A model generated the notes under the pieces. The model was given only the letters and a program-made list of their open reading frames with translations. It was not told the origin of the DNA and did no database searches. A stretch of 8,874 nucleotides of DNA from a virus (lineage: Duplodnaviria > Heunggongvirae > Uroviricota > Caudoviricetes): the IMG/VR virus record IMGVR_UViG_2667527592_000001. The stretch is one strand, 5' to 3'. Of this stretch, positions 1,882 to 8,846 are shown piece by piece. Position 1 is the first letter of the stretch. Every line of letters starts with the position of its first letter. The position numbers were made by a program, and so were the translations under genes.

Positions 1882-4800
1882 ATGGGTAAAGGCAGCAGTA
1901 AGGGGCATACCCCGCGCGAAGCGAAGGACAACCTGAAGTCCACGCAGCTGCTGAGTGTGATCGATGCCATCAGCGAAGGGCCGGTTGAAGGTCCGGTGGA
2001 TGGATTAAAAAGCGTGCTGCTGAACAGTACGCCGGTGCTGGACAGTGAGGGGAATACCAATATATCCGGCGTCACGGTGGTGTTCCGGGCAGGTGAGCAG
2101 GAGCAGACTCCGCCGGAGGGATTTGAATCCTCCGGCTCCGAGACGGTGCTGGGTACGGAAGTGAAATATGACACGCCGATCACCCGGACCATCACGTCGG
2201 CAAACATCGACCGACTGCGCCTGACCTTCGGTGTGCAGGCACTGGTGGAAACCACCTCAAAGGGGGACCGGAATCCGTCGGAAGTCCGCCTGCTGGTTCA
2301 GATACAGCGTAATGGTGGCTGGGTGACGGAAAAAGACATCACCATTAAGGGCAAAACCACCTCGCAGTATCTGGCCTCGGTGGTGGTGGATAACCTGCCG
2401 CCGCGCCCGTTTAATATCCGGATGCGCAGAATGACGCCGGACAGCACCACAGACCAGCTGCAGAACAAAACGCTCTGGTCGTCATACACCGAAATCATCG
2501 ATGTGAAACAGTGCTACCCGAACACGGCACTGGTCGGCGTGCAGGTGGATTCGGAACAGTTCGGCAGCCAGCAGGTGAGCCGTAATTATCATCTTCGCGG
2601 GCGTATTCTGCAGGTGCCGTCGAACTATAACCCGCAGACGCGGCAATACAGCGGTATCTGGGACGGAACGTTTAAACCGGCATACAGCAACAACATGGCC
2701 TGGTGTCTGTGGGATATGCTGACCCACCCGCGCTACGGCATGGGGAAACGTCTTGGTGCGGCAGATGTGGATAAATGGGCGCTGTATGTCATCGGCCAGA
2801 ATTGCGACCAGTCAGTGCCGGACGGCTCTGGCGGCACGGAGCCGCGCATCACCTGTAATGCCTACCTGACCACACAGCGCAAGGCGTGGGATGTGCTCAG
2901 CGATTTCTGCTCGGCGATGCGCTGTATGCCGGTATGGAACGGGCAGACGCTGACGTTCGTGCAGGACCGACCGTCGGATAAGGTGTGGACCTATAACCGC
3001 AGTAATGTGGTGATGCCGGATGATGGCGCGCCGTTCCGCTACAGCTTCAGCGCCCTCAAGGACCGCCATAATGCCGTTGAGGTGAACTGGATTGACCCGG
3101 ATAACGGCTGGGAGACGGCGACAGAGCTTGTGGAGGACACGCAGGCCATTCTCCGTTACGGTCGTAACGTCACGAAGATGGATGCCTTTGGCTGTACCAG
3201 CCGGGGGCAGGCACACCGCGCCGGGCTGTGGCTGATTAAAACGGAGCTGCTGGAGACGCAGACCGTGGATTTCAGCGTGGGTGCCGAAGGGCTTCGCCAT
3301 GTGCCGGGTGATGTTATTGAAATCTGCGATGATGACTATGCGGGGATCAGCATCGGCGGGCGCGTGCTGGCGGTGAACAGCCAGACCCGGACGCTGACGC
3401 TCGACCGTGAAATCACGCTGCCATCCTCCGGTACCACGCTGATAAGCCTGGTTGACGGAAGTGGCAATCCGGTCAGCGTGGAGGTCCAGTCCGTCACCGA
3501 CGGCGTGAAGGTAAAAGTGAGCCGTGTTCCTGACGGCGTTGCCGGATACAGCGTATGGGGGCTGAAGTTGCCGACGTTGCGCCAGCGCCTGTTCCGCTGC
3601 GTGAGTATCCGTGAGAACGACGACGGCACGTATGCCATCACCGCCGTGCAGCATGTACCCGAAAAAGAAGCCATCGTGGATAACGGGGCGCACTTTGACG
3701 GCGACCTGAGCGGCACGGTGAATGGCGTCACACCGCCCGCGGTGCAGCACCTGACTGCCGAAGTCACCGCAGACAGCGGGGAATATCAGGTGCTGGCGCG
3801 CTGGGACACGCCGAAGGTGGTGAAGGGGGTGAGCTTCCTGCTTCGCCTGACCGTGGCAGCGGACGATGGCAGTGAGCGGCTGGTCAGTACGGCCAGGACG
3901 ACGGAAACCACATACCGCTTCACGCAACTGGCGCTGGGGAACTACAGGCTGACTGTCCGGGCGGTAAATGCGTGGGGACAGCAGGGCGATCCGGCATCGG
4001 TATCGTTCCGGATTGCCGCACCGGCAGCGCCGTCTCGGATTGAGCTGACACCGGGCTATTTTCAGATAACTGCCACGCCACATCTTGCGGTTTATGACCC
4101 GACGGTACAATTTGAGTTCTGGTTCTCGGAAACGCGGATTACCGATATCAGGCAGGTTGAAACCACAGCCCGCTACCTTGGCACGGGGCTGTACTGGATA
4201 GCCGCCAGTATCAATATCAAACCGGGCCATGATTATTACTTTTATATCCGCAGTGTGAACACCGTTGGCAAATCGGCATTCGTGGAGGCCGTCGGTCGGG
4301 CGAGCGATGATGCGGAAGGTTACCTGGATTTTTTCAAAGGCAAGATAACCGAATCCCATCTTGGTAAAGAGCTGCTGGAAAAAGTCGACCTGACGGAGGA
4401 TAACGCCAGCAAACTGGAGCAGTTTTCGAAAGAGTGGAAGGATGCTAACGATAAGTGGAATGCCATGTGGGGCGTCAAAATTGAGCAGACCAAAGACGGC
4501 AAACATTATGTCGCGGGTATTGGCCTCAGCATGGAGGACACGGAGGAAGGCAAACTGAGCCAGTTTCTGGTTGCCGCCAATCGTATCGCGTTTATTGACC
4601 CGGCAAACGGGAATGAAACGCCGATGTTTGTGGCGCAGGGCAACCAGATATTCATGAACGACGTGTTCCTGAAGCGCCTGACGGCCCCCACCATTACCAG
4701 CGGTGGAAATCCACCGGCATTTTCCCTGACACCGGACGGAAAGCTGACTGCTAAAAATGCGGATATCAGTGGCAGTGTGAATGCGAACTCCGGGACGCTC

Positions 4801-5277
4801 AACAACGTCACGATTAACGAGAACTGTCGGGTTCTGGGAAAACTGTCCGCGAACCAGATTGAAGGCGATCTCGTTAAAACAGTGGGCAAAGCTTTCCCCC
4901 GGGACTCCCGTGCACCGGAACGGTGGCCATCAGGGACCATTACCGTCAGGGTTTATGACGATCAGCCGTTTGACCGGCAGATTGTTATTCCGGCGGTGGC
5001 ATTCAGCGGCGCTAAACATGAGAGAGAGCATACTGATATTTACTCCTCATGCCGTCTGATAGTGCGGAAAAACGGTGCTGAAATTTATAACCGTACCGCG
5101 CTGGATAATACGCTGATTTACAGTGGCGTTATTGATATGCCTGCCGGTCACGGTCACATGACGCTGGAGTTTTCGGTGTCAGCATGGCTGGTAAATGACT
5201 GGTATCCCACAGCAAGTATCAGCGATTTGCTGGTTGTGGTGATGAAGAAAGCCACCGCAGGCATCAGTATCAGCTGA
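1882..5277 (+). CDS. J: Tail tip host specificity protein J (central tail fibre)
   Basis: 1131-codon ORF (lambda gpJ is 1132 aa). N-terminus [34 protein letters not shown]... and long internal stretches match lambda J as I recall it. GGAG at 1871-1874 lies 7 nt upstream of ATG 1882. Stop TGA at 5275-5277. The last ~150 residues are the receptor-binding region. Confidence 0.97.
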
Positions 5278-5344: not shown

Positions 5345-5416
5345 ATGCGTAAAGTTTGTGCAACCATTTTGTCCGCAGCCATCTGTCTGTCCGTATCCGG
5401 TGCGCCTGCATGGGCG
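5345..5416 (+). other. Predicted Sec signal peptide of Lom (24 aa)
   Basis: Positively charged N-terminus (MRK), hydrophobic core (ATILSAAICLSV), and A-W-A before the predicted mature N-terminus SEHQ... Confidence 0.7.
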
Positions 5417-5944
5417 TCTGAACATCAGTCCACACTGAGCGCAGGGTATCTTCATGCCCGTACGAACGCTCCCGGCAGCGATAATCTGAACGGGATTAAC
5501 GTGAAATACCGTTATGAGTTTACGGACACGCTGGGGCTGATTACGTCCTTCAGTTATGCCAATGCTGAGGATGAGCAAAAAACGCACTACAGCGATACCC
5601 GCTGGCATGAAGATTCCGTGCGTAACCGCTGGTTCAGCGTGATGGCGGGGCCGTCTGTACGCGTGAATGAATGGTTCAGCGCGTATGCGATGGCGGGTGT
5701 GGCTTACAGCCGTGTGTCGACTTTCTCCGGGGATTATCTCCGCGTAACTGACAACAAGGGGAAAACGCACGATGTGCTGACCGGAAGTGATGACGGTCGC
5801 CACAGCAACACGTCTCTGGCGTGGGGAGCTGGCGTGCAGTTTAACCCGACCGAATCCGTGGCCGTTGATGTCGCTTATGAAGGCTCCGGCAGCGGTGACT
5901 GGCGTACCAACAGTTTCATCGTGGGTGTCGGTTATAAATTCTGA
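5345..5944 (+). CDS. lom: Lom-like outer membrane beta-barrel protein (Ail/Lom/PagC family)
   Basis: 199-codon ORF with GAGAGG Shine-Dalgarno at 5334-5339, 5 nt before ATG 5345. N-terminal signal peptide MRKVCATILSAAICLSVSGAPAWA with an AWA-S cleavage-type site. Conserved Lom motifs as I recall them: GINVKYRYE, SVMAGP, SAYAMAGVA and the C-terminal AYEGSGSGDWRTNSFIVGVGYKF ending in aromatic F. Same position as lom in lambda (between J and stf). Confidence 0.93.
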   Translation: MRKVCATILSAAICLSVSGAPAWASEHQSTLSAGYLHARTNAPGSDNLNGINVKYRYEFTDTLGLITSFSYANAEDEQKTHYSDTRWHEDSVRNRWFSVMAGPSVRVNEWFSAYAMAGVAYSRVSTFSGDYLRVTDNKGKTHDVLTGSDDGRHSNTSLAWGAGVQFNPTESVAVDVAYEGSGSGDWRTNSFIVGVGYKF

Positions 5945-6008: not shown

Positions 6009-8846
6009 ATGGCAGTACGGATTTCAGGTGTACTGAAAGATGGCGCAGGTAAGCCGATACAAAACTGCACCATTCAGCTAAAGGCCAGGCGCAACAGCAC
6101 CACGGTGGTGGTGAACACAGTGGCCTCAGAAAACCCGGATGAAGCCGGGCGTTACACAATGGACGTCGAGTATGGTCAGTACAGCGTCAGTCTGTTGGTG
6201 GAGGGATTCCCGCCGTCACACGCCGGGATTATCACCGTATATGAGGACTCAAAGCCGGGCACACTGAATGATTTCCTCGGTGCCATGACGGAGGATGATG
6301 TCCGGCCAGAGGCACTGCGCCGTTTTGAACTGATGGTGGAAGAGGTGGCGCGTAACGCGTCCGCAGTGACACAGAACACGGCAGCCGCGAAGAAGTCAGT
6401 CAGCGATGCCAGCACATCAGCCCGTGAGGCGGCAACCCATGCGACTGATGCTGCAGGCTCAGCACGCGCAGCCAGCACGTCAGCCGGACAGGCCGCGACG
6501 TCGGCTCAGTCAGCGTCTTCCAGCGCAGTAACGGCATCAACAAAGGCCACTGAAGCATCAAAAAGTGCTGCCGCTGCAGAGTCCTCAAAAAGCGCGGCGG
6601 CTACCAGTGCCGGTGCGGCGAAAACGTCAGAAACGAATGCGGCAGCGTCACAACAATCAGCAGCCACTTCTGCATCCACCGCGACCACGAAAGCGTCAGA
6701 AGCTGCCTCCTCAGCCCGGGATGCGTCGGCTTCAAAAGAGGCAGCGAAATCATCAGAAACGAACGCATCATCAAGCGCCAGTAGTGCCGCTTCCTCGGCA
6801 ACGGCGGCAGGAAATTCCGCGAAGGCGGCAAAAACGTCCGAGACAAACGCTAGGTCTTCTGAGACGGCAGCGGGACAGAGCGCCTCAGCTGCGGCAGGCT
6901 CAAAAACAGCGGCTGCATCATCTGCCAGCGCCGCGTCAACAAGTGCCGGGCAGGCCTCAGCCAGTGCCACCGCTGCCGGAAAGTCGGCAGAAAGTGCCGC
7001 ATCGTCTGCTTCAACAGCCACAACGAAGGCTGGCGAAGCCACTGAACAGGCCAGTGCAGCAGCGAGGTCTGCTTCCGCAGCGAAGACATCCGAAACGAAC
7101 GCGAAAGCGTCGGAAACCAGCGCAGAATCCTCAAAAACGGCTGCCGCATCGTCAGCCAGTTCGGCGGCGTCATCGGCATCATCGGCGTCTGCTTCAAAAG
7201 ATGAGGCGACCAGACAGGCGTCAGCAGCGAAGAGCAGCGCCACGACGGCATCCACGAAGGCGACAGAGGCTGCTGGCAGTGCGACGGCTGCATCTCAGAG
7301 CAAAGCTGCTGCTGAATCCGCGGCAACGCGTGCCGAAACAGCGGCAAAACGGGCAGAGGATATTGCTGATGCCGTATCTCTGGAAGATGCGAGCACGACG
7401 AAAAAAGGGGTGGTTCAGCTTAGTAGTGCAACCAACAGCACGTCTGAAACACTGGCTGCGACACCGAAAGCGGTTAAGGCGGTAATGGATGAAACAAATA
7501 AGAAAGCCCCATTAAACAGCCCGACGCTGACCGGAACGCCAACAACACCAACTGCGCCAAAGGGTACTAATAATACTCAGATCGCAAGCACGGCTTATGT
7601 GATGGCCGCTATTGCCGCACTTGTAGATTCGTCACCTGATGCACTGAACACGCTGAACGAGCTGGCTGCGGCGCTGGGCAACGACCCGAATTTTGCGACC
7701 ACCATGACTAACGCGCTTGCGGGTAAGCAACCGAAAGATGCCACCCTGACGGCGCTGGCCGGGCTTGCTACTGCGGCAGACAGGTTTCCGTATTTTACGG
7801 GGAATGATGTCGCCAGCCTGGCAACCCTGACAAAAGTCGGGCGGGATATTCTTGCGAAATCGACCATTGCCGCCGTTATCGAATACCTCGGTTTACAGGA
7901 AACGGTAAATCAGGCTTCTGGCGCATTACAGAAAAACCAGAACGGCGCAGATATTCCAGGAAAAGATACCTTCACCAAAAATATTGGTGCCTGCCGCGCA
8001 TATAGCGCATGGCTGAATATTGGTGGCAATAGTCAGGTCTGGACAACCGCGCAATTTATTTCGTGGCTGGAGAGTCAGGGAGCATTTAACCATCCTTACT
8101 GGATGTGCAAAGGCTCATGGGCTTATGCAAACAATAAGGTCATTACAGATACAGGTTGCGGAAATATTTGTCTTGCAGGTGCTGTGGTGGAAGTTATTGG
8201 CACTCGCGGCGCAATGACCATACGCGTTACTACTCCGAGTACGTCCAGCGGCGGCGGAATCACTAACGCTCAATTCACTTATATTAATCATGGTGATGCT
8301 TATGCTCCTGGCTGGCGAAGAGACTACAATACGAAAAACCAGCAGCCTGCATTTGCTTTAGGGCAAACAGGAAGCAGGGTTGCAAATGATAAAGCTGTTG
8401 GCTGGAACTGGAATAGCGGCGTTTATGATGCAGATATCAGTGGTGCATCGACATTAATCCTCCACTTTAATATGAATGCGGGGAGTTGCCCTGCTGTACA
8501 GTTCCGCGTGAATTATAAGAACGGCGGTATTTTTTATCGTTCAGCGCGTGATGGTTATGGCTTTGAAGCTAACTGGTCAGAGTTTTACACCACAACCCGC
8601 AAACCCTCTGCGGGAGATGTTGGTGCATATACGCAGGCAGAATGTAACTCAAGGTTTATTACAGGTATTCGCCTTGGCGGTCTGTCATCTGTTCAGACAT
8701 GGAATGGTCCCGGCTGGTCTGACAGGTCAGGTTATGTCGTTACGGGTTCAGTTAACGGAAACCGTGATGAATTAATTGATACAACTCAGGCAAGGCCAAT
8801 TCAGTATTGCATTAATGGAACGTGGTATAACGCGGGGAGTATTTAA
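6009..8846 (+). CDS. stf: Side tail fibre protein (Stf-like): lambda-Stf-like N-terminus, long Ala/Ser/Thr-rich repeat shaft, conserved fibre motif, distinct C-terminal tip
   Basis: 945-codon uninterrupted ORF; ATG 6009 is preceded by a G-run at 5997-6005. N-terminus MAVRISGVLKDGAGKPIQNCTIQLKARRNSTTVVVNTV...DEAGRYTMDVEYGQYSV matches the lambda Stf N-terminus as I recall it. KGVVQLSSATNSTSETLAATPKAVKAVMDETNKKAPL (nt ~7404-7508) is a motif shared by several tail-fibre proteins. Stop TAA at 8844-8846. Confidence 0.93.
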   Translation: MAVRISGVLKDGAGKPIQNCTIQLKARRNSTTVVVNTVASENPDEAGRYTMDVEYGQYSVSLLVEGFPPSHAGIITVYEDSKPGTLNDFLGAMTEDDVRPEALRRFELMVEEVARNASAVTQNTAAAKKSVSDASTSAREAATHATDAAGSARAASTSAGQAATSAQSASSSAVTASTKATEASKSAAAAESSKSAAATSAGAAKTSETNAAASQQSAATSASTATTKASEAASSARDASASKEAAKSSETNASSSASSAASSATAAGNSAKAAKTSETNARSSETAAGQSASAAAGSKTAAASSASAASTSAGQASASATAAGKSAESAASSASTATTKAGEATEQASAAARSASAAKTSETNAKASETSAESSKTAAASSASSAASSASSASASKDEATRQASAAKSSATTASTKATEAAGSATAASQSKAAAESAATRAETAAKRAEDIADAVSLEDASTTKKGVVQLSSATNSTSETLAATPKAVKAVMDETNKKAPLNSPTLTGTPTTPTAPKGTNNTQIASTAYVMAAIAALVDSSPDALNTLNELAAALGNDPNFATTMTNALAGKQPKDATLTALAGLATAADRFPYFTGNDVASLATLTKVGRDILAKSTIAAVIEYLGLQETVNQASGALQKNQNGADIPGKDTFTKNIGACRAYSAWLNIGGNSQVWTTAQFISWLESQGAFNHPYWMCKGSWAYANNKVITDTGCGNICLAGAVVEVIGTRGAMTIRVTTPSTSSGGGITNAQFTYINHGDAYAPGWRRDYNTKNQQPAFALGQTGSRVANDKAVGWNWNSGVYDADISGASTLILHFNMNAGSCPAVQFRVNYKNGGIFYRSARDGYGFEANWSEFYTTTRKPSAGDVGAYTQAECNSRFITGIRLGGLSSVQTWNGPGWSDRSGYVVTGSVNGNRDELIDTTQARPIQYCINGTWYNAGSI
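6340..7375 (+). repeat. Low-complexity, imperfectly repeated Ala/Ser/Thr-rich tract inside stf, including four copies of a ~24-27-nt unit encoding A-K-(T/S)-S-E-T-N-A
   Basis: Units begin at ~6618 (gcgaaaacgtcagaaacgaatgcggca), ~6744 (gcgaaatcatcagaaacgaacgcatca), ~6828 (gcaaaaacgtccgagacaaacgct) and ~7080 (gcgaagacatccgaaacgaacgcgaaa), all in the stf frame with synonymous and near-synonymous differences. Related units such as TSAGQA and KSAAA also recur. Confidence 0.85.

Follow-up and report, generated by a model that had tools for sequence, protein, structure and literature searches.

A side tail fiber with a probable 50-heptad coiled-coil rod of the common length and a Mu-type distal module

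The window, by which we mean the whole 8,874-nucleotide stretch of viral DNA that was analyzed, carries the genes K, I, J, lom, and stf in that order, which is also the order in its annotated relatives (ORF list). The side tail fiber gene stf thus occupies the position of a lambda-type Stf in a lambdoid tail module, after J (1882-5277) and lom (5345-5944). Its product also begins with the N-terminal domain of a lambda-type fiber: PF08400 (phage_tail_N) was matched by residues 1-134 (Pfam, E = 1.8e-70), and residues 1-94 matched the Ur-lambda Stf collar chain PDB 9e7m (E = 3e-49). In Ur-lambda Stf, the collar at the tip of the tail is made up of residues 1-91, and a flexible linker (residues 92-101) follows (PMC12617516). 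In NZ_CP148365.1, the closest full-length relative, tfa lies immediately downstream of stf; the window stops 28 nt past the stf stop codon. The main parts of the gene are as follows.

6009..8846, + strand: stf, side tail fiber gene, 945 aa (ORF list)
6009..6323, + strand: N-terminal collar (PfN) domain and linker, residues 1-105 (PF08400 and PDB 9e7m matches)
6324..7373, + strand: Ala/Ser/Thr tract of 50 uninterrupted heptads, A-x-x-S-A-x-x, residues 106-455; probable proximal coiled-coil rod
7374..7481, + strand: residues 456-491, comprising the rod end and the conserved motif SLEDASTTKKGVVQLSSATNSTSETLAATPKAVK; a major mosaic joint
7875..8846, + strand: C-terminal receptor-binding module, residues 623-945, similar to Mu S' (PDB 8ju3)
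7876..7901, - strand: gix-like DNA-inversion crossover site in stf, outside the tract (similarity to gixL)

Between positions 6340 and 7375 (residues 111-456), the protein is 37% Ala, 24% Ser, and 12% Thr, or 73% for the three together. Autocorrelation of residue identity along the tract gave z scores of 8-10 at lags of 7, 14, 21, and 28 residues (z = 10 at lag 7) and no signal at other lags; the true repeat period is 7 aa (21 nt). Ala occupies the first heptad position in 47/49 cases, Ser the fourth in 37/49, and Ala the fifth in 34/49, with no phase break. This is the Ala-x-x-Ala/Ser-x-x-Ser heptad periodicity, lying right after PfN, of a PCoil region. The PCoil of EPclA and EPclB, from an E. 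coli O157 prophage, likewise consists of Ala/Ser-rich heptads directly after PfN (PF08400), and its length differences are multiples of seven, but it spans only residues ~101-245 (about 16 nm), far less than the tract here, and leads into a collagen triple helix, which the window fiber lacks (Ghosh et al. 2012, PMC3368898).

The original prediction described at least four in-frame copies of a 24- to 27-nt unit encoding AK(T/S)SETNA. The degenerate pattern does have exactly four in-frame matches (0 in 200 shuffles), but the unit length gives way to the 21-nt period: AK(T/S)SETN is one heptad, and the four copies are scattered, at spacings of 126, 84, and 252 nt, rather than tandem.

6618..6640, + strand: AKTSETNA unit 1, heptad at residue 204 (pattern match, heptad layout)
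6744..6766, + strand: AKSSETNA unit 2, residue 246; left boundary of a 112-aa deletion in relatives
6828..6850, + strand: AKTSETNA unit 3, residue 274; mosaic joint
7080..7102, + strand: AKTSETNA unit 4, residue 358; right boundary of the 112-aa deletion
7165..7186, + strand: 9-nt micro tandem repeat encoding SSA SSA, where a rare variant lacks 3 aa (TRF)

The last of these was the sole report within the tract when Tandem Repeats Finder (TRF), proposed earlier as a check, was run with a minimum score of 30; the program found no array across the tract, and the description of the tract as a tandem repeat was dropped on that account. Mean heptad-to-heptad nucleotide identity was only ~0.40-0.47 whatever the in-phase lag, and a search for a higher-order repeat, through the identity at each in-phase lag up to 259 aa, returned a flat profile in which no long period (105 or 112 aa, for instance) stood out. 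A hypervariable, contingency-type locus, at which slipped-strand events would frequently change tract length within a phage or lysogen population, should consist of near-identical DNA units placed head to tail; neither the TRF result nor the in-phase identity reveals such units, and in the DNA of the tract only the 2.4-copy 9-nt micro-repeat speaks for it.

Composition raises a different doubt. A tract that is nearly three-quarters Ala, Ser, and Thr, and nearly free of the Leu and Ile typical of coiled-coil cores, might be a disordered low-complexity linker or a nonhelical fibrous fold, for example, a beta-helix. Against this, the 7-residue period is strict and unbroken over 350 residues, and an AF2 monomer model of a 391-residue fragment was helical, as a PCoil should be, over residues 6-389 save for two low-confidence turns. 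The model is a prediction only, and it was used for secondary structure alone; the three-helix hairpin bundle into which the single chain folded (pLDDT 73.5) was set aside, its fold-back being taken as an artifact of modeling one chain from a trimer. The homologous PCoil has been characterized by CD, SEC-MALLS, and EM (PMC3368898), and residues 102-393 of Ur-lambda Stf were described as a trimeric proximal coiled coil from cryo-EM, cryo-ET, and AF3 (PMC12617516). We regard a disordered or nonhelical tract as extremely unlikely.

By analogy with EPclA (PMC3368898) and Ur-lambda Stf (PMC12617516), for both of which trimers were shown, the rod is presumably a parallel trimeric alpha-helical coiled coil. 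Its core would be built of small residues, with Ala at a, Ser at d, and Ala at e, and it would run from the N-terminal collar domain at the tail tip to a hinge and the receptor-binding distal part; its length would follow from how many heptads it has. From ~350 residues at ~0.148 nm each, that length would be ~52 nm, or ~15-16 nm more than the 35-heptad rod of lambda.

Stf of the window is, as first noted, longer than that of lambda, with 945 aa to the 774 aa of Ur-lambda Stf (KT232076.1). The supposition that much of the excess lies in the Ala/Ser/Thr tract was also borne out, in that 105 of the 171 extra residues form one in-frame block in both protein and nucleotide alignments; the other 66 fall in the nonhomologous, Mu S'-like C-terminal module.

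6917..7231 (approximate), + strand: 315-nt block (105 aa, 15 heptads) absent from lambda Stf, residues ~304-408, its placement ambiguous by a few residues (alignments)

Repeat number therefore differs between the two fibers, the lambda rod having 35 heptads, 15 fewer than the 50 here. They share the gene position after J and lom, a collar matching PDB 9e7m, a heptad rod that is collinear on either side of the gap at ~82% identity, and the conserved motif KKG(I/V)VQLSSATNSTSETLAATPKAVK, but their C termini are unrelated, that of lambda being OmpC-binding and His/Gly-rich and that of the window Mu S'-like from residue 623.

The tract is thus long relative to lambda, as had been proposed, but lambda proved to be the wrong norm. 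Of 5426 complete E. coli genomes, at least 3577 contained a match spanning 80% or more of the tract; among 60 evenly spaced sampled records, 47, Rac stfR included, gave a match of equal span in a single piece. Only 96 records had the lambda-type junction at 99% identity or more, and the ones listed were largely K-12, BL21(DE3), and other laboratory strains. Length was counted as the distance between the anchors ELMVEEVARNA and VQLSSATNSTSE. The 82 distinct tracts with both anchors measured 362 aa (65 tracts), 257 aa (9 tracts), 250 aa (4 tracts), and 467, 264, 180, and 354 aa (1 each), and the 65 were of one length despite 5-12% nucleotide divergence. These frequencies are approximate because they come from the best 80 loci per scan and, for BLAST, from 60 listed rows. 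Another 67 loci of the first sample failed the anchor-distance method and so were left out of the length counts; in most of them, a different heptad tract rich in Ala/Ser/Asn/Lys had taken the place of part or all of this one, or the contig was truncated. The best 120 protein-search matches, which are biased toward equal length because they are ranked by score, served solely to find small indels. Contig matches from nonenteric genera were rejected as distribution data and treated as contamination: most matched the N-terminal domain of the query at 88% identity, and those bearing the tract combined the lambda tract length with the 414-aa truncated ORF of laboratory lambda.

The window, like most E. 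coli prophages, has the common allele of 50 heptads, and the lambda rod is a shortened, rare form, a correction to the bias that comes with lambda as the reference. The tract is in this respect ordinary and already known, being the expected side tail fiber rod at its most common length, and its value as a discovery is small. From frequency and diversity, we infer that the polarity is one of deletion in lambda and not insertion here, so that lambda would carry an in-frame 15-heptad deletion relative to the common allele.

The expectation of fiber-length variants among relatives was confirmed, with length heterogeneity across related prophages in 17 of the 82 distinct tracts. In 16 of these 17, the difference was a multiple of 7 aa, as in PCoil regions; the whole-heptad changes reported were -11, -14, -15, -16, and +15, and a size of 7 heptads was also among the large changes observed. 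The remaining variant, L120, combines losses of 7 aa and 1 aa (-8 in total) and is the sole one-heptad deletion seen. Changes of 3 aa (9 nt) in either direction occurred in three database proteins, P0025 and P0082 being without residues 387-389; nothing else resembling slippage was seen. Given these cases and L120, the register rule is strong but not absolute. Coiled coils tolerate stutters and stammers.

Rare 9-nt indels at micro-repeats, and the presence of length variants among the relatives, are what a contingency locus would lead one to expect. So, however, are frequent single-unit changes among close relatives, and here 65 of 82 tracts were equal in length, one heptad was lost in L120 only, and nearly all changes were large (7, 11, 14, 15, or 16 heptads) rather than the one-unit steps of slippage. 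We consider such a locus very unlikely.

Junction sequences suggest how the lengths change. The 112-aa deletion (L041, L131, L148, and L153) ends in AKxSETNA units 2 and 4, with junction regions that match at 23/26 nt and include an 11-nt exact run. The 98-aa deletion sits at TCAGCCCG, with a 13/15-nt match; the +105-aa variant is a tandem duplication whose copies are identical at 310/315 positions; and the 77-aa (11-heptad) deletion of the divergent L191 lineage lies between KTSE(A/T)NA units. Because these junctions fall in similar heptad blocks, several of them KTSETNA, they argue for unequal homologous recombination and not slippage. The tract had been proposed as a substrate for both; the homologous half of that proposal is upheld, while slipped-strand change as the main mode is at odds with the absence of an array. 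At the lambda deletion endpoints in the window sequence, the longest exact run is 4 nt, with no clear homology, and that deletion may have been an illegitimate event or an ancient one that has since been obscured.

What was observed here (the heptad period, the place where lambda has its gap, the distribution of lengths among genomes, and the sequences at the junctions), taken with the published structures of homologs, leads us to conclude, with high confidence, that the tract is a proximal coiled-coil rod of 50 heptads, the common allele, subject to rare whole-heptad changes through unequal recombination. The tract would be stable because its heptads are degenerate at the DNA level, and the rare changes probably arise when similar but dispersed heptad blocks undergo unequal, partly homeologous recombination; since such changes add or remove whole heptads, the coiled-coil register is kept. 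For the engineering of fibers, this means that natural rods tolerate the loss or gain of 11-16 whole heptads.

The same blocks, most visibly the third AKTSETNA unit, double as joints for exchange of the distal module. At the end of unit 3, nucleotide identity to the fibers of L020, L022, L030, and L039 falls from 93-97% to 43-45%, and E. coli genome BLAST matches also stop at ~6843-6850 of the window. Farther along, collinearity is lost at residues 491-493 in 62 distinct relatives. A crude ungapped breakpoint scan overshoots true joints by up to ~10 residues because chance matching continues in repeats, and the unit 3 joint was therefore checked at the nucleotide level. A tentative, and on balance doubtful, extension is that (A)KTSETNA heptads are preferred, register-preserving recombination joints: exchange within a gene would shift rod length (the L041 type being 16 heptads shorter and the divergent L191 lineage 11 shorter), exchange between genes would swap the distal part (as at position 6850, toward the L020, L022, L030, and L039 fibers), and rod length could then be adjusted to how thick the surface layer of the host is. 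For engineering, natural module joints are marked by the AKTSETNA unit at 6828-6850 and by the ATPKAVK motif.

Long ORFs overlap the tract in another frame and on the opposite strand, and these had been judged spurious.

6565..7485, + strand: spurious 306-aa ORF in the +1-shifted frame; stf codon position 3 is its position 2
6506..7255, - strand: spurious antisense ORF, 249 aa (ORF list)
6850..7347, - strand: spurious antisense ORF, 165 aa (ORF list)
6601..6846, - strand: spurious antisense ORF (ORF list)

Their length is the one argument for an embedded gene at 6565-7485 or 6506-7255. The low-complexity translations are a by-product of runs of GCN/TCN/ACN codons, and across 28 distinct collinear relatives, variable sites numbered 86, 75, and 242 at stf codon positions 1, 2, and 3. 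Because variable sites are concentrated at stf position 3, only the stf frame is under purifying selection; there is next to no chance that either ORF is a real gene, and annotators should treat long off-frame and antisense ORFs over the tract as artifacts.

Related prophage fibers, such as StfR of the Rac prophage of E. coli K-12 and that of mEp460, share with the window the N-terminal domain and a full tract of equal length, at ~92-94% nucleotide identity across nt 1-1462 of the gene, but their distal portions diverge past residue ~491. The region of residues 456-491 matches Mu S residues 86-151 (PDB 5yvq), and the last 323 aa share ~97% identity with Mu S' (PDB 8ju3, domain E = 2e-212). The window fiber is a Mu-type distal module fused to a lambda-type proximal fiber; Mu S has neither the PF08400 collar nor the 50-heptad Ala/Ser rod. 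Shared with the Mu S/S' system, in which the G segment is invertible, is a gix-like site at the module junction. The site (7876-7901, - strand) has 2 mismatches to the gixL sequence, with a chance expectation of 0 matches. In one relative, L198, the gix-like site at the same place forms the arms of an inverted repeat.

The + strand of the window holds a lambdoid tail module, as seen in the ORF list:

First gene in the window, + strand: L, 3' part
500-1252, + strand: K
1150-1821, + strand: I
1882-5277, + strand: J
5345-5944, + strand: lom
6009-8846, + strand: stf by homology, a 945-aa ORF with a PF08400 domain and an Ur-lambda collar match

Because the 945-aa ORF carries the PF08400 "prophage tail fibre N-terminal" domain (residues 1-134, E = 1.8e-70) and its residues 1-94 match the Ur-lambda Stf collar chain (PDB 9e7m, E = 3e-49), we identify it by sequence similarity as the side tail fibre gene, stf.

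Nucleotides 6340-7375 encode Stf residues 111-456 and, as the original prediction had read them, are rich in Ala (37%), Ser (24%), and Thr (12%). At least four in-frame copies of AK(T/S)SETNA had been expected; the degenerate pattern matches in frame exactly four times, at 6618, 6744, 6828, and 7080, and not once in 200 shuffles. The proposed repeat unit of ~24-27 nt did not hold, however. The autocorrelation of residue identity peaks at lags 7, 14, 21, and 28 only (z = 8-10), and the sequence laid out in sevens forms 50 consecutive A-x-x-S-A-x-x heptads (residues 106-455) without a phase break, with Ala at position 1 in 47 of 49, Ser at position 4 in 37 of 49, and Ala at position 5 in 34 of 49. 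AK(T/S)SETN is thus one heptad type, the final A being the start of the following heptad, and its four copies are dispersed at spacings of 126, 84, and 252 nt, each a multiple of 21. Tandem Repeats Finder, suggested as a check on the repeat, returned no array over the tract, its sole report being a 2.4-copy 9-nt repeat at 7165-7186. Nucleotide identity between in-phase heptads is only ~40-47%, and no prominent higher-order period was found among them.

The AF2 model of the tract is helical. In the 2025 structure of Ur-lambda Stf, residues 102-393 are assigned to a proximal trimeric coiled coil that runs from the collar and linker to a hinge (PMC12617516), and length differences in PCoil are multiples of seven (Ghosh et al., PMC3368898). 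Strict heptads with small core residues, the predicted helix, and these homologues together argue that the tract is the proximal rod of the side tail fibre, a known coiled coil. At the ~0.148 nm per residue of coiled-coil geometry, the 50 heptads would span about 52 nm, an estimated excess of some 15-16 nm over the 35 heptads of lambda.

That this Stf is longer than lambda's, largely inside the tract, was confirmed by aligning it (945 aa) with the Stf proteins of Ur-lambda (774 aa) and mEp460 (1023 aa). Across the tract, Ur-lambda Stf is collinear with this protein but lacks a single in-frame block of exactly 105 aa (15 heptads), which in the window occupies residues ~304-408 (nt ~6917-7231). 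The remaining 66 aa of the excess lie in the distal part, where the two proteins are non-homologous; window residues 623-945 instead share ~97% identity with the fibre tip of Mu S' (PDB 8ju3). The window therefore does have extra repeat heptads relative to lambda, but lambda is the outlier and the window tract is of usual length. The mEp460 tract equals it in length, and from nt 1 of the gene to ~1460-1470, whole tract included, a single equal-length alignment at 88-95% identity is found in many phages; thousands of E. coli chromosomes, with stfR of Rac (K-12) among the matches, likewise align in one equal-length piece over this span and in this identity range. When nt 6290-7490 were compared with 5426 complete E. 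coli genomes, at least 3577 had a site that matched 80% or more of the query, and 47 of 60 evenly spaced records matched in a single piece of equal span. A 100-nt probe spanning lambda's deletion junction matched at 99% identity or more in 96 records only, and the matches listed were largely K-12, BL21(DE3), and other laboratory strains. The window's tract length is therefore the common allele and lambda's short form is rare; from frequency and diversity, we infer that lambda's is the derived state.

Length variation was assessed in two IMG/VR locus samples, one collected via the N-terminal domain alone and the other via a conserved motif after the tract, neither chosen on tract length, with GTDB loci added. 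Between the anchors ELMVEEVARNA and VQLSSATNSTSE, a distance of 362 aa in the window, 82 distinct tracts measured 362 aa (65 tracts), 257 (9), 250 (4), and 467, 264, 180, and 354 (1 each). The anticipated fibre-length variants thus exist among relatives (17 of 82), and 16 of the 17 differ by an integral number of heptads; only L120 departs from this, combining a one-heptad with a one-residue deletion. Changes of +/-3 aa occur at 9-nt micro-repeats in three database proteins. Slipped-strand hypervariability is not supported, given 65 tracts of one length and the lack of a tandem array.

Recombination between repeat blocks, also foreseen as a source of such variants, is supported by the junctions, most of which are informative. 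In the 112-aa deletion (L041, L131, L148, and L153), AKSSETNA unit 2 (6744-6766) is joined to AKTSETNA unit 4 (7080-7102), sites alike at 23 of 26 nt, including 11 identical nt in a row. L004 carries a 98-aa deletion at a TCAGCCCG common to both ends, inside a 13/15 match, and the 105-aa gain (L017 and L140) is a tandem duplication, its copies 310/315 identical and its junction inside a similar SK(S/T)AAA(T/S)SA block. L191 and L188 belong to a divergent lineage, and L191 has lost 11 heptads relative to L188 between two KTSE(A/T)NA units. For the lambda deletion, the window sequence gave no clear homology at the junction. The rod would be genetically stable because its heptads have diverged at the DNA level, and rare unequal recombination between similar blocks would change it by whole heptads, keeping register.

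The window has mosaic joints with other fibres. It is 93-97% identical in nucleotides to the fibre family of L020, L022, L030, and L039 up to 6850, the end of AKTSETNA unit 3, and 43-45% identical directly after; BLAST matches to several E. coli genomes also stop at ~6850. Further joints cluster at the rod start (residues ~113-120) and past the ATPKAVK motif (residues ~491-493). KTSETNA heptads are candidates for preferred, register-preserving recombination joints, as suggested by four independent cases, a reading that is the one mildly new element, the tract as a coiled-coil rod being already known.

A set of loci (L020-L022, L030, L034-L037, L039, L040, L043, and L045) shares the window's collar and first 25 heptads and changes to a different heptad tract at unit 3. 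Of these, L030 and L039 were read throughout, and in both that tract is followed by a long distal part (~1100-1270 aa) whose end resembles, by eye, a putative intramolecular-chaperone (endosialidase/S74-type) domain.

As predicted, long ORFs in alternative frames and in antisense overlap the tract (306 aa on +; 249, 165, and 81 aa on -). Among 28 distinct collinear relatives, variable tract sites fall at stf codon positions 1/2/3 in numbers of 86/75/242, a signature of coding selection in the stf frame only, and we reject all four as genes; they are by-products of GCN/TCN/ACN codon runs.

A 26-nt site on the - strand (7876-7901) differs by 2 mismatches from the Mu gixL inversion crossover site (0 matches expected by chance); it falls within stf at residue ~623, the exact start of the ~97% identity to Mu S'. 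In the closest full-length relative, plasmid NZ_CP148365.1, stf precedes two tfa genes, first one on + and then one on -, and a tail protein gene (-) that lacks its N-terminal part; the inverted-repeat arms of this plasmid (L198:5877-5928 and 8903-8954) bear the same site. From this site and gene order, the fibre tip probably belongs to an invertible host-range cassette resembling the G segment, whose right arm and invertase are located past the end of the window.

True tandem repeats of this fibre family sit after the coiled coil, as a ~42-aa unit (KGIVQLSSATNSTSE..AATPKAVKAAYDLANGKYTAQDATT) present once in the window, twice in mEp460 (L002, Stf residues ~463-535), and ~5 times in L004 (Stf residues ~365-545); its copy number varies far more obviously than the Ala/Ser tract.

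Lambda-like stf also occurs in assemblies of unrelated genera (L089, L091-L096, L098, and L101-L107), among them Pseudomonas, Shewanella, Neobacillus, Oceanobacillus, Desulfosporosinus, and Leeuwenhoekiella. Some matches are on ~48.4-48.5 kb contigs, several have ~1x coverage, and those containing the tract match lambda in tract length and carry the 414-aa frameshifted ORF of laboratory lambda; these sequences almost certainly stem from contamination by lambda control or vector DNA. Several NCBI records, including P0005, P0008, and P0020, call Stf homologues "short-chain fatty acid transporter," evidently an annotation error; these proteins have PF08400 and fibre repeats and are 93-95% identical to the query.
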